36,714 nucleotides of DNA from a virus (Duplodnaviria > Heunggongvirae > Uroviricota > Caudoviricetes). The position numbers and the translations under genes are program-made. Positions 2,402 through 29,668 of the stretch are shown here, piece by piece (within the stretch, counting starts at the first letter, position 1; each line of letters opens with the position of its first letter). The notes below the pieces were generated by a model. It searched no databases. It saw only the letters and a program-made list of their open reading frames with translations, and was not told the DNA's origin. The DNA lies in the IMG/VR virus record IMGVR_UViG_2737471844_000001. One strand, 5' to 3'.

Positions 2402-2411
2402 GGAGAACCGT

Positions 2412-3079: not shown

Positions 3080-3142
3080 ATAATTAACCAGAGTTTTTAA
3101 CGCACTTAATCGTGCGGGGCTTCTTTTTGCCTGGAGAAAGTC

Positions 3143-3893: not shown

Positions 3894-4168
3894 GTATTCG
3901 TATCGAAATTGGCGAACGTTATGTCGTTACCAGTGACAGCTTTCAGTTTATTCTCCACGAGAAAAAGAGAGCGGAAAGCGGTAAAAACGCCGGTCAGGAA
4001 TGGCTGGCGGTGGTTGGTTATTACCCGAAATTAAGCCAGCTCGTTTCCGGCCTGATGCATCACGATATTCTGACCGGAAGCGCAAAGTCTTTTGCTGATT
4101 TAAACGCGCAGGTTGAGCAACTCAGCAAGCGTTGTTCAGAGGCGTTCTCCAGAGGAGCGTCTGAATGA
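3890..4168 (+). CDS. Early protein at the P2 orf83 position (92 aa)
   Basis: Synteny; ATGA overlap with the previous gene. Confidence 0.65.
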   Translation: MSIRIEIGERYVVTSDSFQFILHEKKRAESGKNAGQEWLAVVGYYPKLSQLVSGLMHHDILTGSAKSFADLNAQVEQLSKRCSEAFSRGASE

Positions 4169-5172: not shown

Positions 5173-7439
5173 GTCATTCTTTCCAGGAGCAATACACCTG
5201 CGTAACTACGTCAGCATTTGCTGCAGGCACCGGTAAGACGTTTACCGGTGCTTATGCATGGAACGCGCCACGCGAGGCCGTCGGGCGCGAAAGACCCCTT
5301 ACACGTGACGAGATGCGTCAGGTGCAAGGGGTTTTATCCACGATTAACCGCCTGCCTTACTTTTTGCGCTCGCTGTTTACTTCACGCTATGACTACATCC
5401 GGCGCAATAAAAGCCCGGTACACGGGTTTTATTTCCTCACATCCACTTTTCAGCGTCGTTTATGGCCGCGCATTGAGCGCGTGAATCAGCGCCATGAAAT
5501 GAACACCGACGCGTCGTTGCTGTTTCTGGCTGAGCGTGACCACTATGCGCGTCTGCCGGGGATGAATGACAAGGAGCTGAAAAAGTTTGCCGCCCGTATT
5601 TCATCGCAGCTTTTCATGATGTATGAGGAACTCTGCGATGCCTGGGTGGATGCGCATGGCGAAAAAGAATCACTGTTTACGGATGAGGCGCAGGATCATC
5701 TGTATGGTCATGTTGCTGGCGCTGCACGTGCTTTCAATATTTCCCCGCTCTACTGGAAAAAATACCGTAAAGGACAGATAACCACGAGGCAGGCATATTC
5801 TGCCATTGCCCGCCTGTTTAACGATGAGTGGTGGACTCATCAGCTTAAAGGCCAGCGTATGCGCTGGCATGAAGCGTTACTGATAGCTGTCGGGGAGGTC
5901 AATAAAGACCGTTCTCCTTATGCCAGTAAACATGCCATTCGTGATGTGCGTGCGCGCCGCCAGGCAAATCTGGAATTTCTTAAATCGTGTGACCTTGAAA
6001 ACAGGGAAACCGGCGAGCGCATCGACCTTATCAGTAAGGTGATGGGCAGTATTTCTAATCCTGAAATTCGCCGGATGGAGCTGATGAACACCATTGCCGG
6101 TATTGAGCGTTACGCCGCCGCAGAGGGTGATGTGGGGATGTTTATCACGCTGACCGCGCCGTCAAAGTATCACCCGACACGTCAGGTCGGAAAAGGCGAA
6201 AGTAAAACCGTTCAGCTTAATCACGGCTGGAACGATGAGGCATTTAATCCAAAGGATGCGCAGCGTTATCTCTGCCGTATCTGGAGCCTGATGCGCACGG
6301 CATTCAAGGATAATGATTTACAGGTCTACGGTTTGCGTGTCGTCGAGCCACACCACGACGGAACGCCGCACTGGCATATGATGCTTTTTTGTAATCCATG
6401 CCAGCGTAACCAGATTATCGAAATCATGCGTCGCTATGCGCTCAAAGAGGATAGTGACGAAAGAGGCGCTGCGCGAAACCGTTTTCAGGCAAAGCACCTT
6501 AACCGGGGCGGTGCTGCGGGATATATCGCGAAATACATCTCAAAAAACATCGACGGCTATGCACTGGATGGTCAGCTCGATAACGATACTGGCAGGCCGC
6601 TGAAAGATACTGCTGCGGCTGTTACCGCATGGGCGTCAACGTGGCGCATTCCGCAATTTAAAACGGTTGGCCTGCCGACAATGGGGGCTTACCGTGAACT
6701 ACGCAAATTGCCTCGCGGCGTCAGCATTGCTGATGAGTTTGACGAACGCGTCGAGGCTGCACGCGCCGCCGCAGACAGTGGTGATTTTGCGTTGTATATC
6801 AGCGCGCAGGGTGGGGCAAATGTCCCGCGCGATTGTCAGACTGTCAGGGTCGCCCGTAGCCCGTCGGATGACGTTAACGAGTATGAGGAAGAAGTCGAGA
6901 GAGTGGTCGGCATTTACGCGCCGCATCTCGGCGCGCGTCATATTCATATCACCAGAACGACGGACTGGCGCATTGTGCCGAAAGTTCCGGTCGTTGAGCC
7001 TTTGACTTTAATAAGCGGCATCGCCGCGCCTCGGAGTCCTGTCAATAACTGTGGAAAGCTCACCGGTGGTGATACTTCGTTACCGGCTCCCACACCTTCT
7101 GAGCACGCCGCAGCAGTGCTTAATCTGGTTGATGACGGTGTTATTGAATGGAATGAACCGGAGGTCGTGAGGGCGCTCAGGGGCGCATTAAAATACGACC
7201 TGAGAACGCCAAACCGTCAGCAAAGAAACGGAAGCCCGTTAAAACCGCATGAAATTGCACCATCTGCCAGACTGACCAGGTCTGAACGATTGCAAATCAC
7301 CCGTATCCGCGTTGACCTTGCTCAGAACGGTATCAGGCCGCAGCGATGGGAGCTTGAGGCGCTGGCGCGTGGAGCGACCGTAAATTATGACGGGAAAAAA
7401 TTCACGTATCCGGTCGCTGATGGTTGGGGGGATTCATAG
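5169..7439 (+). CDS. A: Rolling-circle replication initiator endonuclease (P2 A-like, 756 aa)
   Basis: Length close to P2 A; HUH motif EPHHDGTPHWHMM and paired-tyrosine motif GYIAKYISK. Confidence 0.92.
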   Translation: MSHSFQEQYTCVTTSAFAAGTGKTFTGAYAWNAPREAVGRERPLTRDEMRQVQGVLSTINRLPYFLRSLFTSRYDYIRRNKSPVHGFYFLTSTFQRRLWPRIERVNQRHEMNTDASLLFLAERDHYARLPGMNDKELKKFAARISSQLFMMYEELCDAWVDAHGEKESLFTDEAQDHLYGHVAGAARAFNISPLYWKKYRKGQITTRQAYSAIARLFNDEWWTHQLKGQRMRWHEALLIAVGEVNKDRSPYASKHAIRDVRARRQANLEFLKSCDLENRETGERIDLISKVMGSISNPEIRRMELMNTIAGIERYAAAEGDVGMFITLTAPSKYHPTRQVGKGESKTVQLNHGWNDEAFNPKDAQRYLCRIWSLMRTAFKDNDLQVYGLRVVEPHHDGTPHWHMMLFCNPCQRNQIIEIMRRYALKEDSDERGAARNRFQAKHLNRGGAAGYIAKYISKNIDGYALDGQLDNDTGRPLKDTAAAVTAWASTWRIPQFKTVGLPTMGAYRELRKLPRGVSIADEFDERVEAARAAADSGDFALYISAQGGANVPRDCQTVRVARSPSDDVNEYEEEVERVVGIYAPHLGARHIHITRTTDWRIVPKVPVVEPLTLISGIAAPRSPVNNCGKLTGGDTSLPAPTPSEHAAAVLNLVDDGVIEWNEPEVVRALRGALKYDLRTPNRQQRNGSPLKPHEIAPSARLTRSERLQITRIRVDLAQNGIRPQRWELEALARGATVNYDGKKFTYPVADGWGDS

Positions 7440-7640
7440 GGCGCTTTGATTTTTTCTGTGTTTGACATAGAATAGCCCCGTTACCGCTTGGGACATCTAC
7501 TTTGCATTACTCTTGGTATTAGCTTTGTACAAAGGGTATAAAGGCTGCTATTGGCAACAATAGTGCTGGCATGGAGATTGCCTCATGTTAAAGCTAGTGA
7601 ATGTACGCCAGTACAACCGCTACCGCTTTGGGCGTTGGGA

Positions 7641-7660
7641 GACGGTGCGTAAGCACCGTC
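7641..7660. other. Perfect 8-bp stem-loop GACGGTGC-GTAA-GCACCGTC between convergent genes
   Basis: Read directly; no flanking U-tract on either strand, so not a canonical intrinsic terminator. Confidence 0.4.
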
Positions 7661-7688
7661 GTTCTTACCCAAAACGATAATATGCGGC

Positions 7689-9905
7689 CTAAGCGGTAAC
7701 GTTCTCCTCTTCTAGTTCGTCCATCATTTTTAAATAATGCATTTCGTCACCAGTAGCTGAAAATATTGTTCTCAATTGTTTTAGGTATTTATCTGGGTCT
7801 ATGTCGCCCATATCAGTAATATTTACCGCATCAGAGTGAGAACCTCTGTTAATGTATCTGTAGAATGCTTTGAAATCACTGTTGCTATCGTCGCGTGCCA
7901 ACTTTGTTAATTCATCTTGTAGAGCATCTGTTCTATGAACAAATGCAAAATAATATTCTAGTATGTTTCTCATAATATTAGGTATTATGATTTTGTTTGC
8001 TTTGCCATCTTTTGCATCTTTTAATATTTGCCACAAAGATTGATATTCATTCTGTATGCTGTTTTTTTGTATTTCAGTAATTATACTAAAATCATTTTTC
8101 GTTACTCTACCTAGATAATAGTTTTTCTTAAATAGTTTGTCTTCTCTGCTTTTAGGAGATAGCTTAATAAGTTCATGAAAGAAATAAAGATTGTGAGTAA
8201 GGATTAATACCTTCTTTGTTAATTCATTTTTTATAATGTGGTGATGAATAATTGATGCGATGTCGTAGACATAGTTTTGCGATAGACTAGATATTGGATC
8301 GTCAATAACAATAAAAATATCCCTGCTATCGGTATCATTTTTATCGGTTTTACCTTTACAGCACTCTAAAAAATAAAGAAACGTTATTAGTGTTTTTTCA
8401 CCTTCGCTAAGAGATCTATAAACATTTTGGTTTTTTGTATGCCCTGGTCGAGATATAATGTACATATCTTTTCTTTCTGCATGTTTTTCAATACAAAAAC
8501 CAGAGATCCCTAGATTTTTTAAATGGGTGTTTATTGAGTCTATCGTAGAATCAATGTTAGATATTTTATCTCGCAATGCTTTTATTGTGAGATTATTTTC
8601 TTTTCCTTGTTGCTCAATATTATTTAATTCATCATGAACTTTCTTTTTGATATCAAAGAATTTTTCTTTGTGTTTGGATAAATTCTCTAAATCATCGCTG
8701 CAAAAAGCATGGAGAGCCCCCCAAACTTGTTTTCCGATTTTATTCTCATACTCTTTGAGTTTTTTAACCTTATCATTTATGTCTCTTATTTTTTTGTTAA
8801 CAGCGTCTATGCTTTCCTGAACATGATTTTCTAGTTCTTTATCAATTTCTAATGTAACGCATGTTGATGGATTGTTGATCTTATCAATAATGTTTATTAA
8901 ATTTTTTTCTGCAATGTTTTGCAATATTTTAATATTGGAAATAATGATCTCTTTATCTTTCTCATTGATTAGTGCACATGATGATATATTGTTTTGTATT
9001 TCGTTAAAATGATATATGGTATTTTTCTCATAAACTGACTTTATATCTGAGAGCTGTTTTACTTTCTTTGAATAACTTTCGTCAAATATTGATTTAAGGG
9101 CATTTAAAAATTCGCGACTAATAGTTTTTTCCTGACAAAACGGGCATGTAGAACCGTCTAAATAATGTTCTTTACCTTTTTTTACCCAGTCAAGATTATG
9201 AAGTTTATTAATGGTTTCTGATAAATAGCTATTGCTTGTATCTATTATAGGTGTTGCTAATGTATTTACATCATCAATTGATGGGGTATATGGGTGTAAA
9301 GGAGTTATTAATGCGGTTTCATTGTTTCTATTTTCTAATAGTATAGAGTATTCTTTTGCTATATCATTTAAATTAATAAAGGTGATTGGTGAGGATGATT
9401 TTATCATCTCAAAAAAAGGTCTTTTATAGCCAACTTTACCTTTCATTAAGGTTTTTAGTACAGAGTTTCTGATTGGTTCTGTTTTTTTCCAGATCGATTC
9501 GATGTATTCATTTTCTTTTTTTTCCATTTCTGCTTCTAATTTCAATAACACTCCTTTTTTTTGTCTATATTGCTCTGTAAGTTGCTGTTTAATTGCTTCT
9601 TTTTTAATTAATTGTTTTTCAATATCTGCATTTTCTTTACTTAATGTAAAAACACCTTTTTGTTCCTGTGCATTGTAGAAATTATCTTCAATAAATTTAG
9701 TGTTGTAAACAAGAGGTTTGTAATTGTCAAGAAGGGTACATTCACACTCGTTATAATCTGTGTGTGTAGAGTCGTAGAAATAATTTGAAATGGTAGATTT
9801 GCCACAACCATTTTGGCCGTATAGTATGTTTACTCTTTTTTCAAGATTCAGTATTGTGAAGGCGTCTTTCTTATAACTGGTAACATTTTTTAATCTAAGT
9901 TCCAT
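7689..9905 (-). CDS. Cargo ABC-type ATPase (738 aa) with CxxC insertion and possible RloC/PrrC-like anticodon-nuclease C-terminal region; candidate anti-phage defence protein
   Basis: Walker A GQNGCGKST (res 30-38), ABC signature LSEGEK, Walker B IFIVIDDP, H-loop LTHN; CPFC at res 254-257 plus ECEC at 54-56; C-terminal R-x3-E then H at +40; AT-rich island at the P2 tin/old position; GAGG RBS before the ATG. Confidence 0.6.
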   Translation of the reverse strand: MELRLKNVTSYKKDAFTILNLEKRVNILYGQNGCGKSTISNYFYDSTHTDYNECECTLLDNYKPLVYNTKFIEDNFYNAQEQKGVFTLSKENADIEKQLIKKEAIKQQLTEQYRQKKGVLLKLEAEMEKKENEYIESIWKKTEPIRNSVLKTLMKGKVGYKRPFFEMIKSSSPITFINLNDIAKEYSILLENRNNETALITPLHPYTPSIDDVNTLATPIIDTSNSYLSETINKLHNLDWVKKGKEHYLDGSTCPFCQEKTISREFLNALKSIFDESYSKKVKQLSDIKSVYEKNTIYHFNEIQNNISSCALINEKDKEIIISNIKILQNIAEKNLINIIDKINNPSTCVTLEIDKELENHVQESIDAVNKKIRDINDKVKKLKEYENKIGKQVWGALHAFCSDDLENLSKHKEKFFDIKKKVHDELNNIEQQGKENNLTIKALRDKISNIDSTIDSINTHLKNLGISGFCIEKHAERKDMYIISRPGHTKNQNVYRSLSEGEKTLITFLYFLECCKGKTDKNDTDSRDIFIVIDDPISSLSQNYVYDIASIIHHHIIKNELTKKVLILTHNLYFFHELIKLSPKSREDKLFKKNYYLGRVTKNDFSIITEIQKNSIQNEYQSLWQILKDAKDGKANKIIIPNIMRNILEYYFAFVHRTDALQDELTKLARDDSNSDFKAFYRYINRGSHSDAVNITDMGDIDPDKYLKQLRTIFSATGDEMHYLKMMDELEEENVTA

Positions 9906-10220
9906 TTTTATGCCTCATACGATAAAGCTTTTATTGTATGTAAAAAAGCAGCTTAATATAGCCACTTAGTGGTAAAGATCTACCTTAAGACTTTGATATG
10001 TGCAAGAGGCATATAACGTAAGTGTTCGTTGAGCCAAATATGTTTACGCTATGACGAGTTGGTCGTTTTTTGACAATCCTGTAGGAGCTATAGATAGGCG
10101 TATATTAAGTGCGTGTTTTTGCATGTGTCAGATACTATTCTTTTTGTCAGTTTCGGTCAGTGCTGATGTGATTTCAGTTTCATCATGCAACTGCATTAAA
10201 ACCGCCCCATGAAGCGGGCG

Positions 10221-10239
10221 GGCGAGGCGGGGAAAGCAC
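10221..10239. other. cos cohesive-end site, GGCGAGGCGGGGAAAGCAC
   Basis: 19-nt sequence matching the P2 cohesive end as I recall it, immediately upstream of the portal/terminase genes. Confidence 0.8.
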
Positions 10240-10408
10240 TGCGCGCTGGCGGTGGTGCTGATTTTATTTTTTCAGCGTCTGAGCGCGTCGTGATGGCGTT
10301 TAGATTGTTCGCCGGGGCGTTGGTGTGTCTGCGGGATGTTTTGTGCGGTGGTGAGCGTGTGAGGGCGTGATGACAGGGTGTAAAAAAGCCGCCCGCAGGC
10401 GGCGATGT

Positions 10409-11443
10409 TCAGCCGTTGTCAGGGTCCAGTGAGTAGTTTTTAAAGCGGATGACCTCCTGACCGAGCCAGCCGTTTATCTCGCGGATCCTGTCCTGTAACG
10501 GGATAAGTTCATTGCGGACAAAGACCTTTGCCACTTTCTCAATATCACCCAGCGACCCGACGTTCTCCGGCTTGCCACCCATCAACTGAAAGGGGATGCG
10601 GTGCGCGTCCAGCAGGTCAGCGGCGCTGGCTTTTTTGATATTAAAAAAATCGTCCTTCGTCGCCACTTCACTGAGGGGGATAATTTTAATGCCGTCGGCT
10701 TTCCCCTGTGGGGCATAGAGAAACAGGTTTTTAAAGTTGTTGCGGCCTTTCGACTTGACCATGTTTTCGCGAAGCATTTCGATATCGTTGCGGTCCTGCA
10801 CGGCATCGGTGACGTACATGATGTATCCGGCATGTGCGCCGTTTTCGTAATACTTGCGGCGGAACAGCGTGGCCGACTCATTCAGCCAGGCAGAGTTAAG
10901 GGCGCTGAGATATTCCGGCAGACCGTACAGCTCCTGATTAATATCCGGCTCCAGCAGGTGAAACACGGAGCCGGGCGCGAAAGGTGTCGGCTCGTTGAAG
11001 GACGGCACCCACCAGTAAACATCCTCTTCCACACCACGGCGGGTATATTTTGCCGGTGAGGTTTCCAGTCTGATGACCTTACCGGTGGTGCTGTATCGCT
11101 TTTCCAGAAACGCATTACCGAACACCAGAAAGTCCAGCACAAAGCGGCTGAAATTCTGCTGTGAAAGCCACGGATGCGGGATAAATGTCGAGGCCAGAAT
11201 ATTGCGTTTAACGTAAATCGGTGAGCTGTGATGCACGGCAGCACGCAGGCTTTTTGCCAGACCGGTAAAGCTGACCGGTGGCTCATACCATCTGCCGTTA
11301 CTGATGCACTCGACGTAATCCAGAATGTCACGGCGGTCGAGTACCGGCACCGGCTCACCAAAGGTGAATGCCTCCATTTTCGGGGCGCTGGCGGTCATTT
11401 TTTTTGCCGCAGGTTGCGGTGTTTTCCCTTTTTTCTTGCTCAT
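10409..11443 (-). CDS. Q: Portal protein (P2 Q-like, 344 aa)
   Basis: Exact P2 Q length; next to cos and terminase; stop/start overlap with P. Confidence 0.92.
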   Translation of the reverse strand: MSKKKGKTPQPAAKKMTASAPKMEAFTFGEPVPVLDRRDILDYVECISNGRWYEPPVSFTGLAKSLRAAVHHSSPIYVKRNILASTFIPHPWLSQQNFSRFVLDFLVFGNAFLEKRYSTTGKVIRLETSPAKYTRRGVEEDVYWWVPSFNEPTPFAPGSVFHLLEPDINQELYGLPEYLSALNSAWLNESATLFRRKYYENGAHAGYIMYVTDAVQDRNDIEMLRENMVKSKGRNNFKNLFLYAPQGKADGIKIIPLSEVATKDDFFNIKKASAADLLDAHRIPFQLMGGKPENVGSLGDIEKVAKVFVRNELIPLQDRIREINGWLGQEVIRFKNYSLDPDNG

Positions 11444-13215
11444 CAGTAAAACTCCAGAATGGTGGATGTCAGCGGGGTGCTGATACCGGCGGTGAGTGGC
11501 TCATTTAACAGAGCGTGCATGGTCGCCCATGCGAGGTCGGCGTGGCTGGCTTCCTCGCTGCGGCTGGCCTCATAGGTGGCGCTGCGTCCGCTGCTGGTCA
11601 TGGTCTTGCGGATAGCCATGAACGAGCTGGTGATGTCGGTGGCGCTGACGTCATATTCCAGACAGCCACGGCGAATAACGTCTTTTGCCTTGAGCACCAT
11701 TGCGGTTTTCATTTCCGGCGTGTAGCGGATATCGCGCGCGGCGGGATAGAACGAACGCACGAGCTGGAACACGCCGACACCGAGGCCGGTGGCATCAATA
11801 CCGATGTATTCGACGTTGTATTTTTCGGTGAGTTTGCGGATGGATTCCGCCTGAGTGGCAAAATCCATGCCTTTCCACTGGTGACGCTCAAGTATTCTGA
11901 ATTTGCCACCGGCCACCACCGGCGGTGCCAGCACCACGCATCCGGCGCTGTCGCCACGGTGTGACGGGTCGTAACCAATCCATACCGGGCGGGAGCCGAA
12001 CGGATTGGCGGCAAACGGCGCATAGTCTTCCCATTCTTCCAGCGTGTCGACCATGCAGCGTTGCAGCTCCTCGAACGGGAACACTGACGCCTTGTCGTCA
12101 ACAAATTCACACATGAACAGGTTTTTAAAATCGTCGGCGCTGTTTTCGCGTTTGAGCTGCTCAATGTCGAACAGCGTGCAGCCACCTTTCAGGGCGTCCT
12201 CAATGGTGACAATCTGCCGCCACTGGCCGTCCGCACAGAGAAGACCTCCGGCAAGGGCGTTATGACTGACGTCGATTTCCACGCGTTCGGCGGCGCTGGC
12301 GCGTCCCCGGTTGAACAGTTCACCCGACCAGAACGGGTAGGCGTCGTGCGCCAGCGTGGACGGGGTGGAGAAATAGGTCGAGCGCAGGTGACTCTGTGAG
12401 GCCATACCTGATGCCACCTTACGCAGTACCTGAAAATTCGGGATCCAGAAAATCTCATCGACGTACAGGTCGCCGTTATGGCTCTGTGCGGTGTTGGAGT
12501 TGGTGCCGAGAAAAATCAGTTTTGCGCCGTTATTGCCCAGGACAATCGGGTCACCGGTCAGGTCAACGTCAACCAGCCGGGCAAAGGCGATGATGTATTC
12601 ACGGAACACATACGCCTGCGTTTTACTGGCCGACAGAAAAATCTGGTTATGGCCGGTTTTCAGGGCGCGCAGCAGCGCCTCGCGGGAAAAATAAAACGTT
12701 GCGCCAATCTGACGGGATTTCAGGATATCGCGGATGCGGTGCTCAAGCCCGGCGCGATACCAGTGCAACTGATAGTCGAAAGACTGCTCAAAGAAAATCT
12801 GCTCCAGCTTTTCGATGGCCTCGTCACTGAAAAAATTCTTTTTCGGTTTGCGACGCCCGTCTTTGTTGCGGTTAGCGACGTTCGGATTAAGGTCTGCCTC
12901 GTTGCCGGTCTGACTGTAGCGGTTTACCCGTGCCAGTCGTTCAATCTGGCGTCCGAGCAGGTCAATTTCCTTGAAGTCACCGCCGGTTTTCTGCGGTTTG
13001 ATGATGAGCTGGGTCAGCCGCGCTTCCAGACTCATTTCGACACGGCTGATGGGGGCAACGCTGTCCCAGCCGTCGCGCTGTTTCCAGCTCTGCACCGTCG
13101 GGCGTTTCATCTGCAACATGGCGGCAATCTGCGGCACGGAAAATCCCTGCCAGTACAGCAGCGCCGCCTGACGACGCGGGTCGTGTAAAAGAGTGGTGTC
13201 TGTGGTGATGGTCAT
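11443..13215 (-). CDS. P: Terminase large subunit / ATPase (P2 P-like, 590 aa)
   Basis: Start placed at second ATG (13215), which has a GAGG RBS and gives the P2 P length of 590 aa; ORF track starts 10 codons earlier. Confidence 0.9.
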   Translation of the reverse strand: MTITTDTTLLHDPRRQAALLYWQGFSVPQIAAMLQMKRPTVQSWKQRDGWDSVAPISRVEMSLEARLTQLIIKPQKTGGDFKEIDLLGRQIERLARVNRYSQTGNEADLNPNVANRNKDGRRKPKKNFFSDEAIEKLEQIFFEQSFDYQLHWYRAGLEHRIRDILKSRQIGATFYFSREALLRALKTGHNQIFLSASKTQAYVFREYIIAFARLVDVDLTGDPIVLGNNGAKLIFLGTNSNTAQSHNGDLYVDEIFWIPNFQVLRKVASGMASQSHLRSTYFSTPSTLAHDAYPFWSGELFNRGRASAAERVEIDVSHNALAGGLLCADGQWRQIVTIEDALKGGCTLFDIEQLKRENSADDFKNLFMCEFVDDKASVFPFEELQRCMVDTLEEWEDYAPFAANPFGSRPVWIGYDPSHRGDSAGCVVLAPPVVAGGKFRILERHQWKGMDFATQAESIRKLTEKYNVEYIGIDATGLGVGVFQLVRSFYPAARDIRYTPEMKTAMVLKAKDVIRRGCLEYDVSATDITSSFMAIRKTMTSSGRSATYEASRSEEASHADLAWATMHALLNEPLTAGISTPLTSTILEFY

Positions 13216-22080: not shown

Positions 22081-24399
22081 ATGAGCACAAAATTCAGAAC
22101 CGTTATCACCACTGCCGGTGCAGCAAAGCTGGCAGCGGCAACCGCGCCGGGAGGGCGGAAGGTCAACATTACCACGATGGCCGTCGGGGATGGCGGTGGT
22201 AAATTGCCTGTCCCGGATGCCGGACAGACCGGGCTTATCCATGAAGTCTGGCGACATGCGCTGAACAAAATCAGCCAGGACAAACGAAACAGTAATTATA
22301 TTATCGCAGAGCTGGTTATTCCGCCGGAGGTGGGCGGTTTCTGGATGCGTGAGCTTGGCCTGTACGATGATGCGGGAACATTAATTGCCGTGGCGAACAT
22401 GGCCGAAAGTTATAAGCCAGCTCTTGCCGAAGGCTCAGGGCGTTCGCAGACCTGTCGCATGGTCATCATCGTCAGCAGTGTGGCCTCAGTGGCGCTGACC
22501 ATTGACACCACAACGGTGATGGCGACGCAGGATTACGTTGATGACAAAATTGCAGAGCATGAACAGTCACGACGTCACCCGGACGCCTCGCTGACCGCAA
22601 AAGGTTTTACTCAGTTAAGCAATGCGACCAACAGCACGTCTGAAACACTGGCCGCAACGCCGAAAGCGGTAAAGGCCGCGTATGATCTTGCTAACGGGAA
22701 ATACACTGCGCAGGATGCCACCACAGCGCGAAAAGGCCTTGTCCAGCTCAGTAGCGCCACCAACAGCACGTCTGAAACGCTCGCCGCAACACCAAAAGCG
22801 GTAAAGGCAGCATATGACCTTGCTAACGGGAAATACACTGCACAGGACGCCACCACAGCGCGAAAAGGTCTTGTCCAGCTCAGTAGCGCCACCAACAGCG
22901 ATTCTGAAACGCTTGCGGCAACGCCAAAGGCGGTTAAGACAGCGTATGACCTTGCTAACGGGAAATACACTGCACAGGACGCCACCACGGCGCGGAAAGG
23001 TCTTGTTCAGCTCAGTAGCGCCACCAACAGTGATTCTGAAACGCTGGCCGCAACATCAAAAGCGGTGAAGTCTGCCTATGACAATGCTGAAAAACGTCTT
23101 CAGAAAGATCAGAACGGTGCGGATATTCCGGGAAAGGATACCTTCACGAAAAATATCGGTGCCTGTCGTGCTTATAGCGGCGCTTTGAGCACTGAAGCCG
23201 GAAACTGGACAACCGCTCAGTTTATTGAATGGCTGGATTCCCGTGGTGCATTTAATCATCCGTACTGGATGTGCAAAGGCTCCTGGTCATATGCAAATAA
23301 CAAAATCATTACGGATACCGGATGTGGTGATATCCACCTGGCTGGTTGTGTCGTCGAGGTCATGGGAACTAAATCTGCAATCACTATCCGAGTGACCACG
23401 CCGACAACATCAAGTGGTGGCGGTACAACCAGCGCGCAATTCACTTACATTAATCATGGGGACGGCTACTCCCCCGGCTGGCGTCGTGACTGGAATCGTC
23501 AGGGCGACTCAATGACCGGAACGATTAATCAGGATGGCGGAAGCCAGAATGCCTATATGTCTACGGCCTTATGTTCAGGCACCAGAGGCGGCAAAAAATA
23601 TCTCAGAAAGTTTCGTGGTGGAGAAGGAGACACTATCTGGCATGAAACAGTACAGGGCGGGGTAGTTCGCTGGGCGACTGGTAATACTGATGCTCAGGAA
23701 GAATTATCACTCAGCTCCGCTTATGGTCTCCGTTCAAGAGGTGAGATTACATCACTCAGTGCTAATGGTCTGCGCATTGCTTATGGCAATTATGGTTTCT
23801 TTATCAGGAATGATGGCAGCAGCACTTATTTTATGTTGACTAAATCAGGTGACAGATTAGGCAGTTATAATAATTTAAGACCGCTGATTATAAATGATGC
23901 CACGGGTGCTGTATCAATGGGGCATGGCCTGAATGTTACTGGTGATATTGTCTCAAGTACCAAAGTACGTGCCGGTAGCGGGAAAAAATTCACGGTCAGC
24001 AGCAGTAATACATCCACGAAGGAAGCCGCATTCAATTTGTGGGGAAACTCAAGTCGTCCGGTGGTGGCTGAATTAGGTGATGATGCAGGCTGGCATTTTT
24101 ACAGTCAGAGAAATACAGATAACAGCATCACTTTTGCTGTTAACGGGCAGGTATCACCATCTAACTATGGCAACTTTGATTCACGCTATGTCCGGGATAT
24201 CCGGCTTGGTGGTGCTGCCACATACAAACCTGCGAACAATGGCATGACATGGACACATCAGGCACCGTCCGGGTGTGTATATTCCGGCATTATTGTTCAG
24301 GATACCGGCTCAAACTCTGCCGATAACATTGGTGGCATATATTACAGACCGGTGCAGAAATACATTAACGGGACATGGTATAACGTGGCGCAGGTATAA
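22081..24399 (+). CDS. H: Tail fibre protein (P2 H-like, 772 aa) with internal tandem repeats
   Basis: Position between I and G; about 100 aa longer than the P2 H length I recall (669 aa), accounted for by the in-frame repeats. Confidence 0.88.
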   Translation: MSTKFRTVITTAGAAKLAAATAPGGRKVNITTMAVGDGGGKLPVPDAGQTGLIHEVWRHALNKISQDKRNSNYIIAELVIPPEVGGFWMRELGLYDDAGTLIAVANMAESYKPALAEGSGRSQTCRMVIIVSSVASVALTIDTTTVMATQDYVDDKIAEHEQSRRHPDASLTAKGFTQLSNATNSTSETLAATPKAVKAAYDLANGKYTAQDATTARKGLVQLSSATNSTSETLAATPKAVKAAYDLANGKYTAQDATTARKGLVQLSSATNSDSETLAATPKAVKTAYDLANGKYTAQDATTARKGLVQLSSATNSDSETLAATSKAVKSAYDNAEKRLQKDQNGADIPGKDTFTKNIGACRAYSGALSTEAGNWTTAQFIEWLDSRGAFNHPYWMCKGSWSYANNKIITDTGCGDIHLAGCVVEVMGTKSAITIRVTTPTTSSGGGTTSAQFTYINHGDGYSPGWRRDWNRQGDSMTGTINQDGGSQNAYMSTALCSGTRGGKKYLRKFRGGEGDTIWHETVQGGVVRWATGNTDAQEELSLSSAYGLRSRGEITSLSANGLRIAYGNYGFFIRNDGSSTYFMLTKSGDRLGSYNNLRPLIINDATGAVSMGHGLNVTGDIVSSTKVRAGSGKKFTVSSSNTSTKEAAFNLWGNSSRPVVAELGDDAGWHFYSQRNTDNSITFAVNGQVSPSNYGNFDSRYVRDIRLGGAATYKPANNGMTWTHQAPSGCVYSGIIVQDTGSNSADNIGGIYYRPVQKYINGTWYNVAQV
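22600..23095 (+). repeat. About 3.75 tandem copies of a 132-bp (44-aa) in-frame repeat inside H
   Basis: Repeat units begin at 22600, 22732, 22864 and 22996, each encoding K-G-x-x-Q-L-S-x-ATNSxSETLAATPKAVKxAYDLANGKYTAQDATTAR; the last copy is partial. Confidence 0.9.
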
Positions 24400-24402
24400 T
24401 TT

Positions 24403-24930
24403 ATGCAGCATTTGATAAATATAACGGTGGGTAATCCAAAAACGGTTGAACAATATCAATTGACAAAGGACTTTGATGTTGTCTGGTTTTTTTCAGAAGA
24501 TGGTAAGAACTGGTACGAAGAACAAAAGTATTTTGCTGATGACACGATAAAAATAGCGTACGACAAAGATAATATTATCCGCTATGTGGAAAAGGATGTG
24601 ACAGCTATCAGACCAGATGGATTAAGTGTGGTTGAAGTGGCGGATATTACTGCTAACCGACGGGCGGACATTTCAGGGAACTGGATGTTTAAGGACGGCA
24701 AAGTGATTAAACGCATTTATACGGCAGAGGAATTGCAGCAGCAGGCAGAAAACCGGAAAGCCAGACTTCTTGCAGATGCTGAATCCGTGATTTTGCCACT
24801 GGAGCGCGCTGTCAGGCTGAACATGGCAACAGATGAGGAGCGTAGCCGACTGGAAGCATGGGAACGCTACAGTGTTCTGGTCAGCCGTGTGGATCCTGCA
24901 AATCCTGAATGGCCGGAAATGCCGCAATAA
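24403..24930 (+). CDS. G: Tail fibre assembly chaperone (P2 G-like, 175 aa)
   Basis: Length and position after H. Confidence 0.88.
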
Positions 24931-25405
24931 GTTGTATAAGCTCTGGTGTGAGATTACATATCTATGGCACAGAGTAAAGCCTAATCTGACAGTCCGCTCT
25001 GTGCCAAGAGCGGACGTTACTACTACTCGACCTAAAGTAAAGCAATTGTACTCATTAAATAGTGGTAATTGGGTCTGGTGCTTAATCGAACGAAATCTCA
25101 TGTTAGGCGAAAAAAACGTCTGAAAAATCGATTAACACATACACCTGTGTACTATGGCCGTTATTCAATTTAAAAGGAACCATTTCCGATATGATTCACT
25201 GTCCATAATGTTTTGATTTATTAAAAAAGAGCCTTAGAGTGTGAAACCATTACGTTGAGTGGCGAACACCATTAATAAATTCTGCTTATACTTACAGCAT
25301 ATATTATGTTCACGTCATATAACCATGGCAAATAAGATATTGCACATCAAGCATGATTATGATAGTGATTACAAAAATGAAGAATCTTAGATAAAGGATT
25401 AGTAA

Positions 25406-26341
25406 GTGGTTACATATAATTCAATGTTGTTACCCCCCCCTAAATCTTGGGACGAATTTGAGGATATGTGCAAAAGTTCATTCCAACTGCGATGGTCCAA
25501 TCCTAATCTGAACAGACATGGACGGTCAGGGCAGCGGCAGGATGGAGTTGATGTATATGGTGATGACTCTCTTGGGCGTTTCGTTGGAATTCAGTGTAAA
25601 AATACAGTATCAGGAATCAGTACGGCGACAATCGATGATGAATTACTCAAGGCTGAAAAATTTCGCCCAAAAATTACGGTTCTTTACATCGCTACGACAG
25701 CGCCCAGGGATGTTAGCATTCAGCGCTATGTAAGAACACTCAATGATGCCAGACAATTAAAAGGCCTGTTTCCTGTCGATGTGGTTTTCTGGGAGGATAT
25801 TAGCTTTGATTTAAGCAAAGACCCAGCTGTACTCAAAATGTACTACCCGCAAATGTTCGAACGACACCAACCGACGAGGGAAGAATTTTTGCGCAAGAGA
25901 GATATCTCAAATTTGTCGACATTGTTGAATGTTATTGATTTTCATTCAACAATAGAACATTTGCAGTGGGGCGCAAAATACATTCATTCATTAATTATTG
26001 AAGAATACGATAATATTTTGAACATTTTAAACTCACCTGTTTTTCAACTGAATGATACAGCTTTAAAGAATGTTACAATTGATTTTGCAACGGCCTGGCG
26101 TGATCTAATTATCTTGTTTAGAAAAGCTCCATATAATTATTCAGCACCAAATGATACTTTTAGTTTTATAAATCCCGGTGACCACTGTCGAAATCAGGAG
26201 GAAAGCGATTTATACGACGAAATCACGCATAGCATGAGTAATCTCAAAGATAAAATTAGTACTTTTTGTGACTTTATAAATAATCACTACCATGAAATAA
26301 ACTTAACCGAAACGAGCGCGCAAGCCAGGAAATATTATTAA
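25406..26341 (+). CDS. Cargo protein with Mrr-like PD-(D/E)xK restriction-endonuclease-fold N-domain and uncharacterised C-domain (311 aa); candidate defence nuclease
   Basis: EFE...GRSGQRQDGVDVYGDD...RFVGIQCK...ITVLYIATT resembles the Mrr catalytic-domain pattern (D, D, QxK); GTG start with AAGGA RBS; AT-rich island at the P2 Z/fun position. Confidence 0.6.
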   Translation: MVTYNSMLLPPPKSWDEFEDMCKSSFQLRWSNPNLNRHGRSGQRQDGVDVYGDDSLGRFVGIQCKNTVSGISTATIDDELLKAEKFRPKITVLYIATTAPRDVSIQRYVRTLNDARQLKGLFPVDVVFWEDISFDLSKDPAVLKMYYPQMFERHQPTREEFLRKRDISNLSTLLNVIDFHSTIEHLQWGAKYIHSLIIEEYDNILNILNSPVFQLNDTALKNVTIDFATAWRDLIILFRKAPYNYSAPNDTFSFINPGDHCRNQEESDLYDEITHSMSNLKDKISTFCDFINNHYHEINLTETSAQARKYY

Positions 26342-26618
26342 TACTTTTTTCTTAAGGGCTGCACTCATGGCCCTTAACACCGTTAGACTGTCATATTTTG
26401 CAATCGATACGCAGTTAGGTACTTTCTTGAAGTCCGTTCCTCGCTCATAGCTGACATTCAGCTCAATTAACTCGTCCACTTCGCTCCAACAGAAGGCGTA
26501 GCTAATCATACTGTGTATTAAAGAAAGGAGAAACGATCATGTTGAGTACAAAAAACACGAAAGACCATGATAAGGAAAATATGCGTAGAGTGACTTAGTT
26601 TATTGATTTAAATAATAT

Positions 26619-26924
26619 TTATGGGGGTAAGTGCTTTGAATAAAAAAACAAAAATTGAGAAGATTTAGCTAGTGCCAAAATAATTTGGACACCGCCCGTC
26701 ATCAGACCCGCTACTACACTTATCACCCCAGCCCAAAAAGTTTCAATGAAACAAGATACATATAGTAGTACTACATGGCGGAATAATTTACTCATAGGCT
26801 TCTCCTTACTGACGTAATCGTTAAGTAACACGTTGAGGTAACGGATAAATGCGACTATTGGGAGAGCTGTGATGAGAATTGTAGGCATAGGAATCGAACC
26901 TATGGATGCACTAGCTAAATTCAC
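26619..26924 (-). CDS. Possible small membrane protein (101 aa, GTG start), antisense between the two cargo genes; may be spurious
   Basis: Two or three hydrophobic segments; no clear RBS; reads through a tRNA T-arm-like motif on the same strand. Confidence 0.25.
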   Translation of the reverse strand: MNLASASIGSIPMPTILITALPIVAFIRYLNVLLNDYVSKEKPMSKLFRHVVLLYVSCFIETFWAGVISVVAGLMTGGVQIILALAKSSQFLFFYSKHLPP

Positions 26925-27125
26925 TCTTCACGAATTATACAGCATTGTAGTGAGTTTGTAAATACACGCCCCAAAAGTCAATCAGTCCGCTCCATGAATG
27001 TTGTGTCAGTACTACTAAAGTTAAACATGCTAAAATAGGTTCCCAATATTCGTGGGTACAATCACTATCTGTGTAACTGGCGGAAGCGCTGGCATAACGA
27101 CGATGCCTATTCGGGGGGCTTTAAT

Positions 27126-27992
27126 ATGGTCCGTTTTAACTTACTAGAAAATGCGTTGGATTCAGTGGAAACCGGGCTGGACTACTTTAACAAAGCGCTA
27201 GAAGGGCATGATCGACGTGACTACAAACAGTGCCTGCTTAACCTCTTTCAGGCCGCTGAGCTATTGTTGAAGGCCGTAGTTTCGCGCAATGGGTCTGGAG
27301 CGATTTTTAATCCAGCATCGCTTCAAGAAAAATGTGTGGATCCGGCGCATCCAACCGAGTCAGAATTACACCAGTGTAAATCTGTCAACGTCAACCAGCT
27401 TTGTAAGCTGTTAAAGACATATTACCCAGCCGAATTTTCTGAATCTGCATTACAAATGATGAAAACGGTGGGTCAGTTGCGTAATAACCTTCAGCATTTT
27501 GCCCTTGAGGTTCGTCCGCAAGAACTGGCAATGCAACTGAGTGAACTGTACCAACAAATTTTTCGTCCCGCATTCGTCATAATTCAGTCAGATGAGACCG
27601 AAAATTCATGGAACTCTGATTTACGTCAAGACATCATCGCTCTTGAGCAACAATTCCTTGATATAACTGTTAACCAGGAATACACCCTTGCACTTTGTCC
27701 CGTTTGTGAGAGTTTTTCACATTTTATCCTTTACCAAAGTGAAAGCTTTCCGGCACGGACTCACTGTATCTGTTGTGGTTTCAGCCTGAATAATCTGCAA
27801 ACTTGGGATTTTCAGGAATGTCCTGAATGTAGTGTCCCATCCGTAATTTATTTACCGGAACAAAGGGTCGGTGTCTGTCTCTGGTATAAATGTGAATACA
27901 GCAAGATGGATGGTTTTGTTCCTATGGAGCCTTGTGAATGTGGTGCATTCCGGATGGAAGGTCATTGCAGTAACTGCGATCTTGAGGAATAG
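27126..27992 (+). CDS. Cargo HEPN-domain protein with Cys-rich putative zinc-ribbon C-terminus (288 aa); candidate RNase-type defence effector
   Basis: Rx4H motif in TVGQLRNNLQHF after an alpha-helical N-region; C-terminal 90 aa with repeated CxxC/CxC pairs (CPVC, CICC, CPEC, CEC, CSNC). Confidence 0.6.
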   Translation: MVRFNLLENALDSVETGLDYFNKALEGHDRRDYKQCLLNLFQAAELLLKAVVSRNGSGAIFNPASLQEKCVDPAHPTESELHQCKSVNVNQLCKLLKTYYPAEFSESALQMMKTVGQLRNNLQHFALEVRPQELAMQLSELYQQIFRPAFVIIQSDETENSWNSDLRQDIIALEQQFLDITVNQEYTLALCPVCESFSHFILYQSESFPARTHCICCGFSLNNLQTWDFQECPECSVPSVIYLPEQRVGVCLWYKCEYSKMDGFVPMEPCECGAFRMEGHCSNCDLEE

Positions 27993-28355
27993 TAAAATCG
28001 TCCGATGAGAATGTACAGCAGCCTGGTCGATGATTTCTTGATGAATCGCTGAATTATCCGGTATTACTTGACAACTAAATCGCACATTTCTGTTTCTGGC
28101 AATTTGAAAGGTTTACTCTATGCCCCAGAATTCAGCACATACATAAAAACACCATTTCAGAACGCGTCTTGATCCAAAGAACGACTGTATGATAGATAGG
28201 CGTCGTCGTGAGGACAGGAATGATCTACCCCCCGTTATTCATACAGAATGCTGTTAGTAATGTCCGCAGATCGCTCAAAGCAGACTGTCAGATTTGATAG
28301 CGTTTGGGCTATGTAAGTAGCCAGTTGGAGAATGAGTGAGTGCAAATCAGGACTG

Positions 28356-28381
28356 GCGGGCGAATTGCCCGCATTTTCTTT
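28356..28381 (+). terminator. Candidate rho-independent terminator separating the cargo island from the late tail operon
   Basis: GCGGGC-GAATT-GCCCGC hairpin followed by ATTTTCTTTAT. Confidence 0.6.
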
Positions 28382-28477
28382 ATCTGTTGTTTCATCCACT
28401 GACCAGCCAGGTCAAATAGCGTCTCATGCACTGCCCAACAGAAAATAGTTGCACCCATTAACCACGGAGTTAAACGG

Positions 28478-29668
28478 ATGAGTGACTATCATCACGGCGT
28501 GCAGGTGCTGGAGATTAACGACGGCACCCGCGTCATTTCCACTGTATCCACTGCCATTGTCGGCATGGTCTGCACGGCCAGCGATGCGGATGCGGAAACC
28601 TTCCCCCTCAATAAACCTGTGCTGATTACCAATGTGCAGAGCGCAATTGCAAAGGCCGGTAAAAAAGGCACGCTGGCGGCATCGTTGCAGGCCATCGCTG
28701 ACCAGTCAAAACCGGTCACCGTTGTCGTGCGCGTGGAAGACGGCACCGGCGACGACGAAGAAACGAAACTCGCGCAGACTGTTTCCAATATCATCGGCAC
28801 CACCGACGAAAACGGTCAGTACACCGGACTGAAAGCCCTGCTGGCGGCGGAGTCGGTAACCGGTGTTAAACCGCGTATTCTCGGTGTGCCGGGACTGGAT
28901 ACCAAAGAGGTGGCTGTTGCACTGGCATCCGTCTGTCAGAAGCTGCGTGCTTTCGGATATATCAGCGCATGGGGCTGTAAGACCATTTCCGAGGTGAAAG
29001 CCTACCGCCAGAATTTCAGCCAGCGTGAGCTGATGGTCATCTGGCCGGATTTCCTCGCATGGGATACGGTCACCAGTACCACCGCCACCGCGTATGCCAC
29101 CGCCCGTGCGCTGGGGCTGCGCGCTAAAATCGACCAGGAGCAGGGCTGGCATAAAACGCTGTCCAATGTCGGGGTGAACGGTGTTACCGGCATCAGCGCA
29201 TCTGTATTCTGGGATTTGCAGGAGTCCGGCACCGATGCTGACCTGCTTAACGAGTCAGGCGTCACTACGCTGATTCGCCGCGACGGTTTCCGATTCTGGG
29301 GTAACCGTACCTGCTCTGATGACCCGCTGTTCCTCTTTGAAAACTACACCCGCACCGCGCAGGTGCTGGCCGACACGATGGCTGAGGCGCACATGTGGGC
29401 GGTGGACAAGCCCATCACCGCAACGCTGATTCGCGACATCGTTGACGGCATCAATGCCAAATTCCGTGAGCTGAAAACAAACGGCTATATCGTGGATGCG
29501 ACCTGCTGGTTCAGCGAAGAATCCAACGATGCGGAAACCCTCAAGGCCGGAAAACTGTATATCGACTACGACTATACCCCGGTGCCTCCTCTTGAAAACC
29601 TGACCCTGCGCCAGCGTATTACCGATAAATACCTGGCAAATCTGGTCACTTCGGTTAACAGCAATTAA
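28478..29668 (+). CDS. FI: Tail sheath protein (P2 FI-like, 396 aa)
   Basis: Exact P2 FI length; synteny. Confidence 0.92.
   Translation: MSDYHHGVQVLEINDGTRVISTVSTAIVGMVCTASDADAETFPLNKPVLITNVQSAIAKAGKKGTLAASLQAIADQSKPVTVVVRVEDGTGDDEETKLAQTVSNIIGTTDENGQYTGLKALLAAESVTGVKPRILGVPGLDTKEVAVALASVCQKLRAFGYISAWGCKTISEVKAYRQNFSQRELMVIWPDFLAWDTVTSTTATAYATARALGLRAKIDQEQGWHKTLSNVGVNGVTGISASVFWDLQESGTDADLLNESGVTTLIRRDGFRFWGNRTCSDDPLFLFENYTRTAQVLADTMAEAHMWAVDKPITATLIRDIVDGINAKFRELKTNGYIVDATCWFSEESNDAETLKAGKLYIDYDYTPVPPLENLTLRQRITDKYLANLVTSVNSN

Follow-up and report, generated by a model that had tools for sequence, protein, structure and literature searches.

Two stacked single-gene cassettes with predicted nucleases, candidates for anti-phage defence, in the Z/fun hotspot of a P2-like Escherichia coli prophage

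The interval between genes G and FI of P2-like phages is a known hotspot for cargo genes (PMC9122126; bioRxiv 10.64898/2026.02.27.708500; GenBank AJ512676, AJ512683). P2 Z/fun and the other Z-region cargo (AJ512676, AJ512683) occupy this slot between annotated left and right inverted repeats, and the island described here has the same slot and the same repeats. Two groups of nucleases are among the closest known systems to what the island carries. Avs4, Avs2, Lamassu LmuA, Cap4 and Can2/Card1 each combine a PD-(D/E)xK effector with a sensing module in anti-phage immunity. HEC-08, together with the PADLOC candidates PDC-S64 and PDC-S19, is a single gene with an N-terminal DUF3644-type HEPN domain, bearing the Rx4-6H motif, and C-terminal zinc-ribbon-like domains. 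HEC-08 alone cuts the plaquing of several coliphages, and its defence is lost when the motif histidine is mutated (Payne et al., bioRxiv 10.1101/2024.01.29.577857). A full-text literature search for PDC-S64 and for the RefSeq proteins WP_001399106, WP_000251361 and WP_034169311 found no paper.

Here we analyse a low-GC insert of 3.25 kb that a P2-like E. coli prophage carries in its Z/fun hotspot, between gpG and gpFI, in the context of its window (the whole stretch of DNA studied, 36,714 nucleotides). The insert probably consists of two single-gene cargo cassettes, unrelated and separately mobile, that are stacked at a shared boundary motif and each encode a candidate sensor-nuclease defence.

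The island between G and FI

The insert has a GC content of 0.35–0.44, compared with 0.55–0.59 in the tail genes on either side. Its landmarks are as follows.

24903..25017, no strand: P2 'Z-region' hotspot, left inverted repeat (94% identity with the feature of that name in AJ512676)
24983-24994, within the left inverted repeat: inverted-repeat (IR) core AATCTGACAGTC
24992-25000/25007-25015: stem of the hairpin after G (−32.6 kcal/mol; fold z = −2.7)
25406..26341, + strand: ORF1, 311 aa
27126..27992, + strand: ORF2, 288 aa
28255..28294, no strand: Z-region, right inverted repeat (IR core AGACTGTCAGATT at 28282-28294)
28356..28372, + strand: terminator-like hairpin GCGGGCGAATTGCCCGC followed by the T-run ATTTTCTTTA, upstream of FI

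The repeat names are those of the GenBank annotation (AJ512676), and the repeats form the inverted pair I1 (24983-25022 with 28255-28294). The preliminary description had placed two co-oriented genes about 780 bp apart, bounded by a hairpin after G and a terminator before FI, in an island whose content departs from the canonical P2 Z/fun genes, and each of these points holds: the gap measures 784 bp, a hairpin (24992-25015) and a terminator-like hairpin bound the island, and in nucleotide comparison reference P2-like phages align to the flanks only (~10% of the query). Its cargo has no sequence similarity to that of AJ512676/AJ512683-type phages and, unlike Z/fun-type Z-regions, the island holds two stacked cassettes and an additional internal repeat copy.

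Both ORFs are real genes with many homologues each, called hypothetical proteins in RefSeq. A promoter scan yielded no convincing sigma-70 promoter upstream of ORF1 or near ORF2; because the scan was no richer than shuffled sequence (7 promoter-like sites in the region, 9.8 expected), no promoter is assigned to either gene.

Two predicted nucleases and their C-terminal domains

ORF1 consists of an Mrr-type PD-(D/E)xK nuclease domain (residues 1 to ~150) followed by a helical bundle (~158 to 311). The structure model and its fold matches contain the restriction-endonuclease-like alpha/beta core, residues E19, D49, Q63 and K65 are invariant in an alignment of 65 ORF1-family sequences, and the catalytic stretch D49...Q63-C-K65 is encoded at 25550-25600. 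The N-terminus is thus predicted to be a DNA nuclease of this fold, in agreement with the DNA-nuclease-like character first given to the gene. ORF1 itself has no match among the Pfam (E <= 1), NCBIfam and PADLOC models, and the Mrr_cat models are reached by just 3–4 of its 65 relatives (E ~1e-3, best 4e-4), so it is filed within the same fold and superfamily rather than as a Pfam Mrr_cat member. A PDB profile search returned only insignificant coiled-coil-like matches; the gene does match PHROG 8991 (unknown function), and its dN/dS of 0.12–0.41 indicates purifying selection. The C-terminal domain is specific to the ORF1 family and resembles generic helical bundles only. Genes for HerA/DUF4297, Dsr1, MzaA, PDC-S06, AriA, LmuB, AbiLi and MADS lie near ORF1 homologues.

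The best structural matches of ORF1 include MspJI and AspBHI, modification-dependent enzymes with the same D...QxK catalytic variant, and some ORF1 relatives bear the UniRef name 'Restriction endonuclease type IV Mrr domain-containing protein'. Both fit a Type IV modification-dependent restriction endonuclease, which would recognize modified phage DNA through its C-terminal domain and cut it with the Mrr-type domain, in place of an abortive-infection sensor-nuclease. This identity is unlikely for ORF1, since its helical domain has no similarity to SRA, YTH, winged-helix or other modified-base readers, no Pfam Mrr_cat match is found for the protein itself, and the same nuclease fold serves as effector in Avs4, Cap4, Can2/Card1 and Lamassu LmuA, none of which is Type IV. 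ORF1 also differs from the Mrr/MspJI-type nucleases (Pfam Mrr_cat, Mrr_cat_2) in its layout, with an N-terminal nuclease and then a helical domain lacking DNA-reader similarity. It is like Avs4, Avs2, LmuA, Cap4 and Can2/Card1 in joining a predicted PD-(D/E)xK effector to a putative sensing module, but stands alone at 311 aa without their STAND ATPase, SMC partner, SAVED or CARF.

ORF2 is predicted to combine a HEPN RNase (R119-x4-H124) with three C-terminal Cys4 zinc ribbons, consistent with the RNase-like character in the preliminary description. The DUF3644-type HEPN domain spans residues 1 to ~181, with its R119-NNLQ-H124 motif (Rx4-6H; RNNLQH, encoded at 27480-27497) invariant in 29 homologues. 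The zinc ribbons (residues 185-288; 27678-27989) lie in a C-terminal part that is beta-rich in the structure model and contain 12 conserved cysteines in six pairs, all of them invariant in 15 homologues; in the larger alignment (29 homologues) eight are invariant and the other four conserved at >= 90%. The TFIIB zinc ribbon 1pft, matched by residues 228-269 (E = 0.001), is the sole result of the PDB profile search, and a dN/dS of 0.20 indicates purifying selection.

The best match of ORF2 is to PDC-S64, at E = 4.3e-21 over the N-terminal HEPN half only. The match to the HEC-08 model is weak (E = 4.2e-6, 24 bits) and extends over the full length (residues 14-285); distant relatives of ORF2 match HEC-08 at 1e-17 to 1e-27 and PDC-S64 strongly too. 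ORF2 has the domain order of HEC-08, PDC-S64 and PDC-S19, but is shorter (288 aa, against HEC-08 and PDC model lengths of 339–358) and, in contrast to HEC-08, is located in the P2 Z/fun hotspot rather than inside another defence system. HepS of the Salmonella Gifsy-1 prophage, unlike ORF2, is without a zinc-ribbon domain; it matches ORF2 distantly in structure, with no detectable sequence relation (Sargen et al., Nature 2026, PMC13043305).

Independent distribution on separate cassettes

The preliminary description had left two readings side by side, independently expressed single-gene systems or a two-component module in which one gene acts as sensor or antitoxin-like partner of the other. 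Several observations favor the module: the genes are co-oriented neighbors in one island, ORF2 is present in 13/13 complete E. coli genomes with ORF1, and the pair is retained in P2 variants with different G and H genes. In the locus L087, for example, which has other tail-fibre and G modules, G is 77% and the island 98% identical. The pair is kept across differing P2 backgrounds, and co-selection or synergy of ORF1 and ORF2 in E. coli may therefore occur.

The wider distribution argues for separate genes. Across 5,426 complete E. coli genomes, ORF1 occurs in 13 and ORF2 in 28, 15 of which lack ORF1; L002, the one ORF1-less genome inspected, has an S1 peptidase gene at the position of ORF1. 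No ORF2 relative was found within 10 kb at any of 80 ORF1-relative loci in a one-genome-per-species scan, and 17 full-length ORF1 homologues (39–83% identity) have no conserved neighbor. ORF2 homologues from Dickeya, Serratia, Raoultella and elsewhere, 52–76% identical, likewise lack ORF1 and share no neighbor across contexts, which would fit an ORF2 that acts alone. The pair is limited to near-identical P2-type prophage islands of E. coli; beyond these, no ORF2-homologue locus carried ORF1.

Four other candidate partners were also rejected. Directly upstream of ORF2 homologues, an RHH-domain gene is present in L088 and L105 only and is absent here; a 521-aa ABC-type ATPase with a 313–328-aa partner, found close to the ORF2 homologues of Dickeya and Serratia (and as a remnant in L088), varies in position and orientation and is also absent here. 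Two 259-aa neighbors in L118 and L124 are unrelated, and a PDC-S06 gene adjoins one ORF1 homologue only (L004).

Each gene travels in a block of its own, delimited by the following features.

24985..26460, + strand: cassette A, one mobile block of ORF1 with ~410 bp upstream and ~120 bp downstream
26385..26397, + strand: third IR core copy AGACTGTCATATT, just past ORF1, at the right end of cassette A
26432..26451, + strand: 20-nt boundary motif GTCCGTTCCTCGCTCATAGC, common to the two cassette ends that adjoin here, the right one of A and the left one of B (junction alignment)
26432..28298, + strand: cassette B, one mobile block of a small-ORF element and the HEPN gene

Cassette A occurs without ORF2 at 84–87% DNA identity in Serratia silvae (L003) and S. 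marcescens (L121, L124), and cassette B without ORF1 at 95–97% in S. marcescens (L118) and Phytobacter (L119). In S. marcescens the two cassettes each fill, in different strains, the same slot between LysR/beta-lactamase and LacI/aldolase genes. Cassette B is also 98.9% identical in the listed ORF1-less E. coli genomes (L002 inspected), where the matches stop at 28284-28285, within the right IR core. The IR core occurs three times in the whole window at <= 1 mismatch, compared with 0.025 copies expected by chance. An inverted copy of the 20-nt motif lies at 24996-25015 (3 mismatches; 0 expected by chance) and a 15/20 copy, read from the sequence, at 28262-28281.

The cassette boundaries and the independent distribution of the genes are established, and the island is an ordinary case of hotspot stacking of single-gene defence candidates rather than a two-part system. 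Of the earlier interpretation, the single-gene alternative stands, each gene occurring without the other, on its own cassette and with no conserved partner. The sensor or antitoxin pair falls: it is highly improbable given the ORF1-relative and ORF2-homologue loci that lack the other gene, the 15 E. coli genomes with ORF2 only, the cassettes found singly in Serratia (and cassette B in Phytobacter too), the divergent small gene with its own strong promoter-like site that separates ORF1 from ORF2, and the HEC-08 architecture, which functions as a single gene (bioRxiv 10.1101/2024.01.29.577857).

The small gene lies in the 784-bp gap, whose contents the preliminary description had passed over, with two features on the minus strand.

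26619..26795, − strand: small hydrophobic ORF, 58 aa, RefSeq WP_231360267, with the Shine-Dalgarno sequence (SD) AAGGAG and a leader of ~130 nt
26934..26962, − strand: promoter-like site TTTACA-17-TATAAT (11/12 matches) for the small-ORF transcript, kept in L118, L119, L120, L002 and L087

This element may act as protein or as RNA. The leader is better conserved than the ORF, for which dN/dS is 0.58–0.63, and a perfect 13-bp pairing of the 5' end with the 3' end of the ORF is present in the minimum-free-energy fold, with a z of only −2.1. On the + strand, transcription from a promoter-like site at 26655-26684 would produce an antisense RNA that continues into the HEPN gene. The small ORF has no Pfam match, and an Rfam search (E <= 1) over 24900-28500 gave a single chance snoRNA match. 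ARAGORN finds no tRNA at a T-arm-like hairpin (26886-26904), and a 19-aa ORF with a good SD (26539-26598) was discounted, its start codon being lost in L120.

Cassette B could itself have two parts, either the HEPN protein with the divergent hydrophobic protein as membrane effector or co-factor, or a hok-like type I toxin encoded by the small ORF, with the HEPN 5' leader as antisense RNA, that stabilizes the cassette. The small ORF and the HEPN gene do co-travel at 95–99% identity in E. coli, S. marcescens and Phytobacter, and the strong promoter-like site, SD, leader, fold-back and possible antisense RNA would suit such a role; but HEPN homologues at <= 76% identity have no small ORF, Dickeya chrysanthemi (L120) has the element without the HEPN gene, and the dN/dS near 0.6, the modest fold score, the missing Rfam and Pfam matches and the lack of covariation (the sequences are too alike) also argue against it. 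A two-part cassette B is consequently rather unlikely, and cassette B, like cassette A, is treated here as a single-gene cassette.

Candidate defence roles and cassette movement

We infer an anti-phage role for both cassettes; the folds and conserved catalytic residues are established, and activity, triggers and substrates are candidates. ORF1 and ORF2, expressed from the prophage, would each work alone as a sensor-effector fusion, in which the C-terminal domain (the helical bundle of ORF1, the zinc ribbons of ORF2) would sense a protein or nucleic acid of the infecting phage and thereby free the N-terminal nuclease. ORF1 would then cut DNA, and ORF2, as a HEPN dimer, would cut RNA, leading to growth arrest or abortive infection.

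Both proteins are annotated as hypothetical in all records and ORF1 matches no defence model, as might be expected if the genes were addiction modules, other morons or decaying cargo without benefit to the lysogen. Such a non-defence role is quite improbable, because the catalytic residues of both genes are intact and invariant, both are under purifying selection, the cassettes have spread between genera at 84–97% identity, both genes lie in defence-rich neighborhoods and in a defence hotspot, and HEC-08, a relative with the architecture of ORF2, has been validated.

The cassettes are bounded by an element of ~35 nt with the consensus aaNGTCCGCTCCTCGCTCAAAGCnGACnnTCAGnTT, whose inverted copy folds into a hairpin. 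The island has three copies, one at each end and one where A meets B, and the breakpoints of cassette B in other genomes fall inside the element; its 20-nt core is found in >120 IMG/VR contigs, the majority of which have no P2-type genes close by. As a tentative and on balance doubtful proposal, the element could be a recombination site at which single-gene defence cassettes are swapped and stacked, integron-like, between P2 Z/fun and the chromosomal hotspots of other genera.

For P2 cargo islands, the locus illustrates that two adjacent nuclease genes in a hotspot do not make a system and that cassette boundaries and distribution decide. ORF2 brings the HEC-08/PDC-S64 type of predicted HEPN-plus-zinc-ribbon protein into P2-like prophages of enterotoxigenic E. 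coli. The family that ORF1 defines (PHROG 8991) is widespread and consists of predicted Mrr-type nucleases in which the N-terminal domain is conserved and the C-terminal domains are swappable; with no Pfam, NCBIfam or PADLOC model and with members in defence islands, it is a candidate for a new single-gene defence that could be tested cheaply. A concrete lead on cassette movement comes from the boundary element that the cassettes share; if it is a recombination site, it would supply a mechanism by which prophage defence loci undergo the rapid 'swapping and mixing' reported without explanation in recent surveys.

The Z-region island

The DNA under study, a P2-like prophage, carries ORF1 (an Mrr-type PD-(D/E)xK nuclease gene) and ORF2 (a gene for a HEPN RNase with zinc ribbons) on an island between the tail genes G and FI. 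In P2-like coliphages this site is the 'Z-region' cargo slot, a known cargo and defence hotspot (PMC9122126; bioRxiv 10.64898/2026.02.27.708500). Left and right inverted repeats are annotated around this slot in GenBank AJ512676 and AJ512683. The layout given in the preliminary description was borne out: both ORFs are present on the same strand, the separation put at about 780 bp measures 784 bp, a hairpin folds 3' of G (−32.6 kcal/mol, z = −2.7), and the terminator proposed before FI was found as a GC-rich hairpin with a T-run. The features are as follows.

24403-24930, tail-fibre assembly gene G, the island's neighbour on one side
~24903-25017, left inverted repeat of the Z-region, mapped from the AJ512676/AJ512683 annotation
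24983 (inverted), 26385 and 28282, inverted-repeat core AGACTGTCAGATT, at most one mismatch
24983-25022, 26385-26451 and 28255-28294, boundary element of ~35 nt, GTCCGCTCCTCGCTCAAAGCnGACnnTCAGnTT, at both island ends and the junction of cassettes A and B (comparison loci in other genomes, L126-L203)
25406-26341, + strand, ORF1, 311 aa, GTG start with AAGGA ahead of it
26795 down to 26619, − strand, small hydrophobic ORF, 58 aa (RefSeq), inside the ORF1-ORF2 gap, Shine-Dalgarno AAGGAG
26962-26934, − strand, strong promoter-like site TTTACA-17-TATAAT, 11/12 matches
27126-27992, + strand, ORF2, 288 aa
~28262-28352, right inverted repeat of the Z-region, mapped from the same annotation
28356-28372, GC-rich hairpin and T-run ahead of FI
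28478-29668, tail sheath gene FI, the island's neighbour on the other side

The insert has a GC content of 0.35-0.44, versus 0.55-0.59 in the tail genes, and is unmatched by reference P2-type phages, whose matches cover the flanks only; seven complete E. coli genomes, most of them from human enterotoxigenic isolates (e.g., NZ_CP025916), match window 24900-28500 at 100% identity. Elsewhere on the prophage, the tail fibre gene H (22081-24399) encodes four tandem copies of a ~42-aa segment (window 22600-23000; pattern ..GFTQLS.ATNS.SETLAATPKAVK.AYDLANGKYTAQDATT..). The second P2 cargo hotspot, the old/tin slot (7689-9905, minus strand, GC 0.28-0.29), holds a gene for a 738-aa AAA_13 ABC-type ATPase that matches the PADLOC candidate PDC-S06 (2e-254) and is PrrC-like in its C-terminal part; this brings the prophage's candidate defence genes to at least three.

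Distribution of ORF1 and ORF2

The two genes had been proposed as a possible two-component module or, equally, as independent single-gene systems. ORF1 occurs in 13 and ORF2 in 28 of 5,426 complete E. coli genomes, so that ORF2 is found without ORF1 in 15; twelve further E. coli genomes, among the matches listed, retain window 26430-28284 alone (98.9% identity). When one genome per species was scanned, 80 loci with ORF1 relatives were recovered, none with an ORF2 relative within 10 kb (tblastn), and no neighbour was conserved across 17 full-length ORF1 homologues. ORF1 never stands beside ORF2 homologues of 52-76% identity (from Dickeya, Serratia, Raoultella, an NCBI assembly and an IMG/VR contig), which have no neighbour common across their contexts, and the two genes occur together only in near-identical E. 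coli P2-type islands. Co-transcription is disfavoured as well, because the gap holds an opposite-strand small ORF with its own promoter. To judge from sequence distribution, ORF1 and ORF2 are not one system; the module lacks support, and the single-gene alternative gains it, each gene being found without the other on a separate cassette.

Serratia silvae, S. marcescens and one further genome have cassette A alone (window 24985-26460, with ORF1), at 84-87% DNA identity; cassette B alone (26432-28298, with the small ORF and ORF2) is present in Phytobacter and S. marcescens, at 95-97%. In different S. marcescens strains the same slot, flanked by LysR/beta-lactamase genes on one side and LacI/aldolase genes on the other, holds either cassette A (loci L121-L123, about 5400-7200) or cassette B (locus L118, 2800-7700, together with two unannotated genes, of 259 and 178 aa, and one of the YaaC family). 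ORF1 and ORF2 are alternative occupants of one S. marcescens hotspot, which looks like a chromosomal defence hotspot sharing cargo with E. coli P2 prophages.

In the one ORF1-less E. coli inspected (L002, NZ_CP053723), a trypsin-like S1 peptidase gene lies upstream where ORF1 would be. This decayed P2 Z-region (1400-13100), marked by a tail-fibre-assembly pseudogene, holds DUF2971, DUF4236, the peptidase and cassette B, and adjoins the remnant of a P4-like satellite that includes psu and a reverse transcriptase gene; the peptidase has weak matches to the defence-system protease modules RT-Protease_XI, LmuA and HamA.

ORF1 and ORF2 as candidate defence genes

Both genes are annotated as hypothetical in RefSeq, and each has numerous homologues. 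ORF2 is under purifying selection (dN/dS 0.20; dS is saturated in distant pairs) and carries an Rx4-6H motif, R119-N-N-L-Q-H124, invariant in homologues. Residues 185-288 contain twelve conserved cysteines in six pairs, which would suffice for three Cys4 zinc ribbons, and residues 228-269 match a TFIIB zinc ribbon (E = 0.001). In PADLOC, ORF2 matches PDC-S64 (4e-21, HEPN half), HEC-08 (4e-6, residues 14-285) and PDC-S19. An exhaustive HMMER search yielded 638 cluster representatives (E ≤ 1e-3), many of ~300 aa and matching end to end. Ten of these were scanned with PADLOC: six distant relatives matched PDC-S64 (to 9e-29) and HEC-08 (1e-17 to 9e-27), three closer ones PDC-S64, alone or with a weak HEC-08 match, and one had no match. 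HEC-08 lowers coliphage plaquing, an activity lost on mutating the motif histidine (bioRxiv 10.1101/2024.01.29.577857). ORF2 is classed as HEC-08/PDC-S64-like, a candidate defence gene of an already known type.

Genes beside ORF2 homologues include ABC-ATPase systems, RES, CRISPR and toxin-antitoxin genes. ORF2 homologues in Dickeya and Serratia adjoin genes for a 521-aa SMC_N/AAA_15-type ATPase and a 313-328-aa partner of unknown function (L106 6935-9750; L108 2012-4702); because their position and orientation vary, these probably form a two-gene defence system of their own, housed in the same islands. A C-terminal remnant adjoins the homologue in L088 (10930-11175). In L088 (9804-9998) and L105 (4915-5916) the homologue is closely preceded by the end of a gene whose N-terminus is ribbon-helix-helix-like (LxLRFPxKLIxxLKSRxSxExTxVNAL). 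This gene might serve some members of the family as regulator or antitoxin; the window lacks it.

ORF1 is also under purifying selection (dN/dS 0.12-0.41). It matched no model in Pfam, NCBIfam or PADLOC, its sole family match being PHROG 8991, of unknown function; a few relatives match Pfam Mrr_cat or Mrr_cat_2 and PADLOC LmuA or Avs2 (E ~1e-3 to 1e-4). An AlphaFold2 model built with 65 homologues is confident (pLDDT 90) and has two domains of uncertain relative orientation (pTM 0.53). The residues E19, D49, Q63 and K65 do not vary across 65 sequences, and D49-x13-Q63-C-K65 forms a D...QxK variant. A Foldseek search of the whole PDB ranked MspJI first, followed by EcoO109I, Avs4, Card1, Can2 and Cap4; it gave no hit at E ≤ 0.001 and found the two-domain architecture in no solved structure. 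For the helical C-terminal domain (residues ~158 to 311), the only resemblance is to generic four-helix bundles. Many relatives share ~50% identity in the N-terminal half and differ in the C-terminal half (typical query coverage 48%), which is the pattern of a constant putative effector with swappable sensor domains. The Mrr-type family to which ORF1 belongs is unmodelled and makes a reasonable new single-gene defence candidate. Genes near its homologues include HerA/DUF4297, Dsr1, MzaA, PDC-S06, AriA, LmuB, AbiLi and MADS.

The hotspot slot and these neighbours give indirect support to a defence role for both genes. Most likely, the lysogen would make each protein as a sensor-effector fusion that works on its own. 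By analogy with HEC-08 and the Salmonella Gifsy-1 prophage protein HepS (PMC13043305), the ORF2 HEPN dimer would stay inactive until a phage protein or nucleic acid docks on its zinc-ribbon part; growth would then stop through cleavage of tRNA or mRNA. In ORF1, detection of a trigger would fall to the helical domain and DNA cleavage to the Mrr-type domain; Type IV restriction, in which modified phage DNA would be cut directly, is a live alternative.

The boundary and small-ORF elements

The hotspot inverted-repeat core AGACTGTCAGATT has three copies in the window (0.025 expected by chance in the whole window), the middle one just 3' of ORF1. Thirty-five bases beyond it lies a 20-nt motif, GTCCGTTCCTCGCTCATAGC (26432-26451), which closes cassette A in Serratia and opens cassette B in Serratia and E. 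coli. An inverted copy of this motif forms the hairpin of the left repeat, the right repeat contains a 15/20 copy (read from the sequence), and cassette B matches in ORF1-less E. coli end at 28284-28285, within the repeat core. These features make the island a stack of two cassettes that meet at a common boundary element.

More than 120 IMG/VR contigs among the matches listed carry a degenerate version of the 20-nt core, with flanks unconserved outside the ~35-nt consensus and P2-type proteins nearby in 37/118 loci among those matches. In E. coli, 1,105 genomes have sequence like the right repeat (window 28250-28300), at 1-4 places each, all intergenic among 30 records listed. Cassette exchange may use the boundary element as a recombination site.

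The small ORF has a predicted transcript with a leader of ~130 nt, whose 5' end pairs with the ORF 3' end over a perfect 13 bp, a closure present in the minimum-free-energy fold (z = −2.1); the leader also holds a T-arm-like hairpin, CATAGGTTCGATTCCTATG. E. coli, Serratia and Phytobacter conserve this element (window 26600-26962, minus strand) together with the HEPN gene; a Dickeya chrysanthemi contig (L120) has the element, at 83% identity, and lacks the HEPN gene. The ORF has a dN/dS of 0.6 and is less conserved than the leader, and the element matched no Rfam family, tRNA or Pfam family; its layout resembles that of a hok-type type I toxin locus, which it may be. Overall, the island is a case of ordinary hotspot stacking; of its features, the small-ORF and boundary elements offer the more unusual leads.
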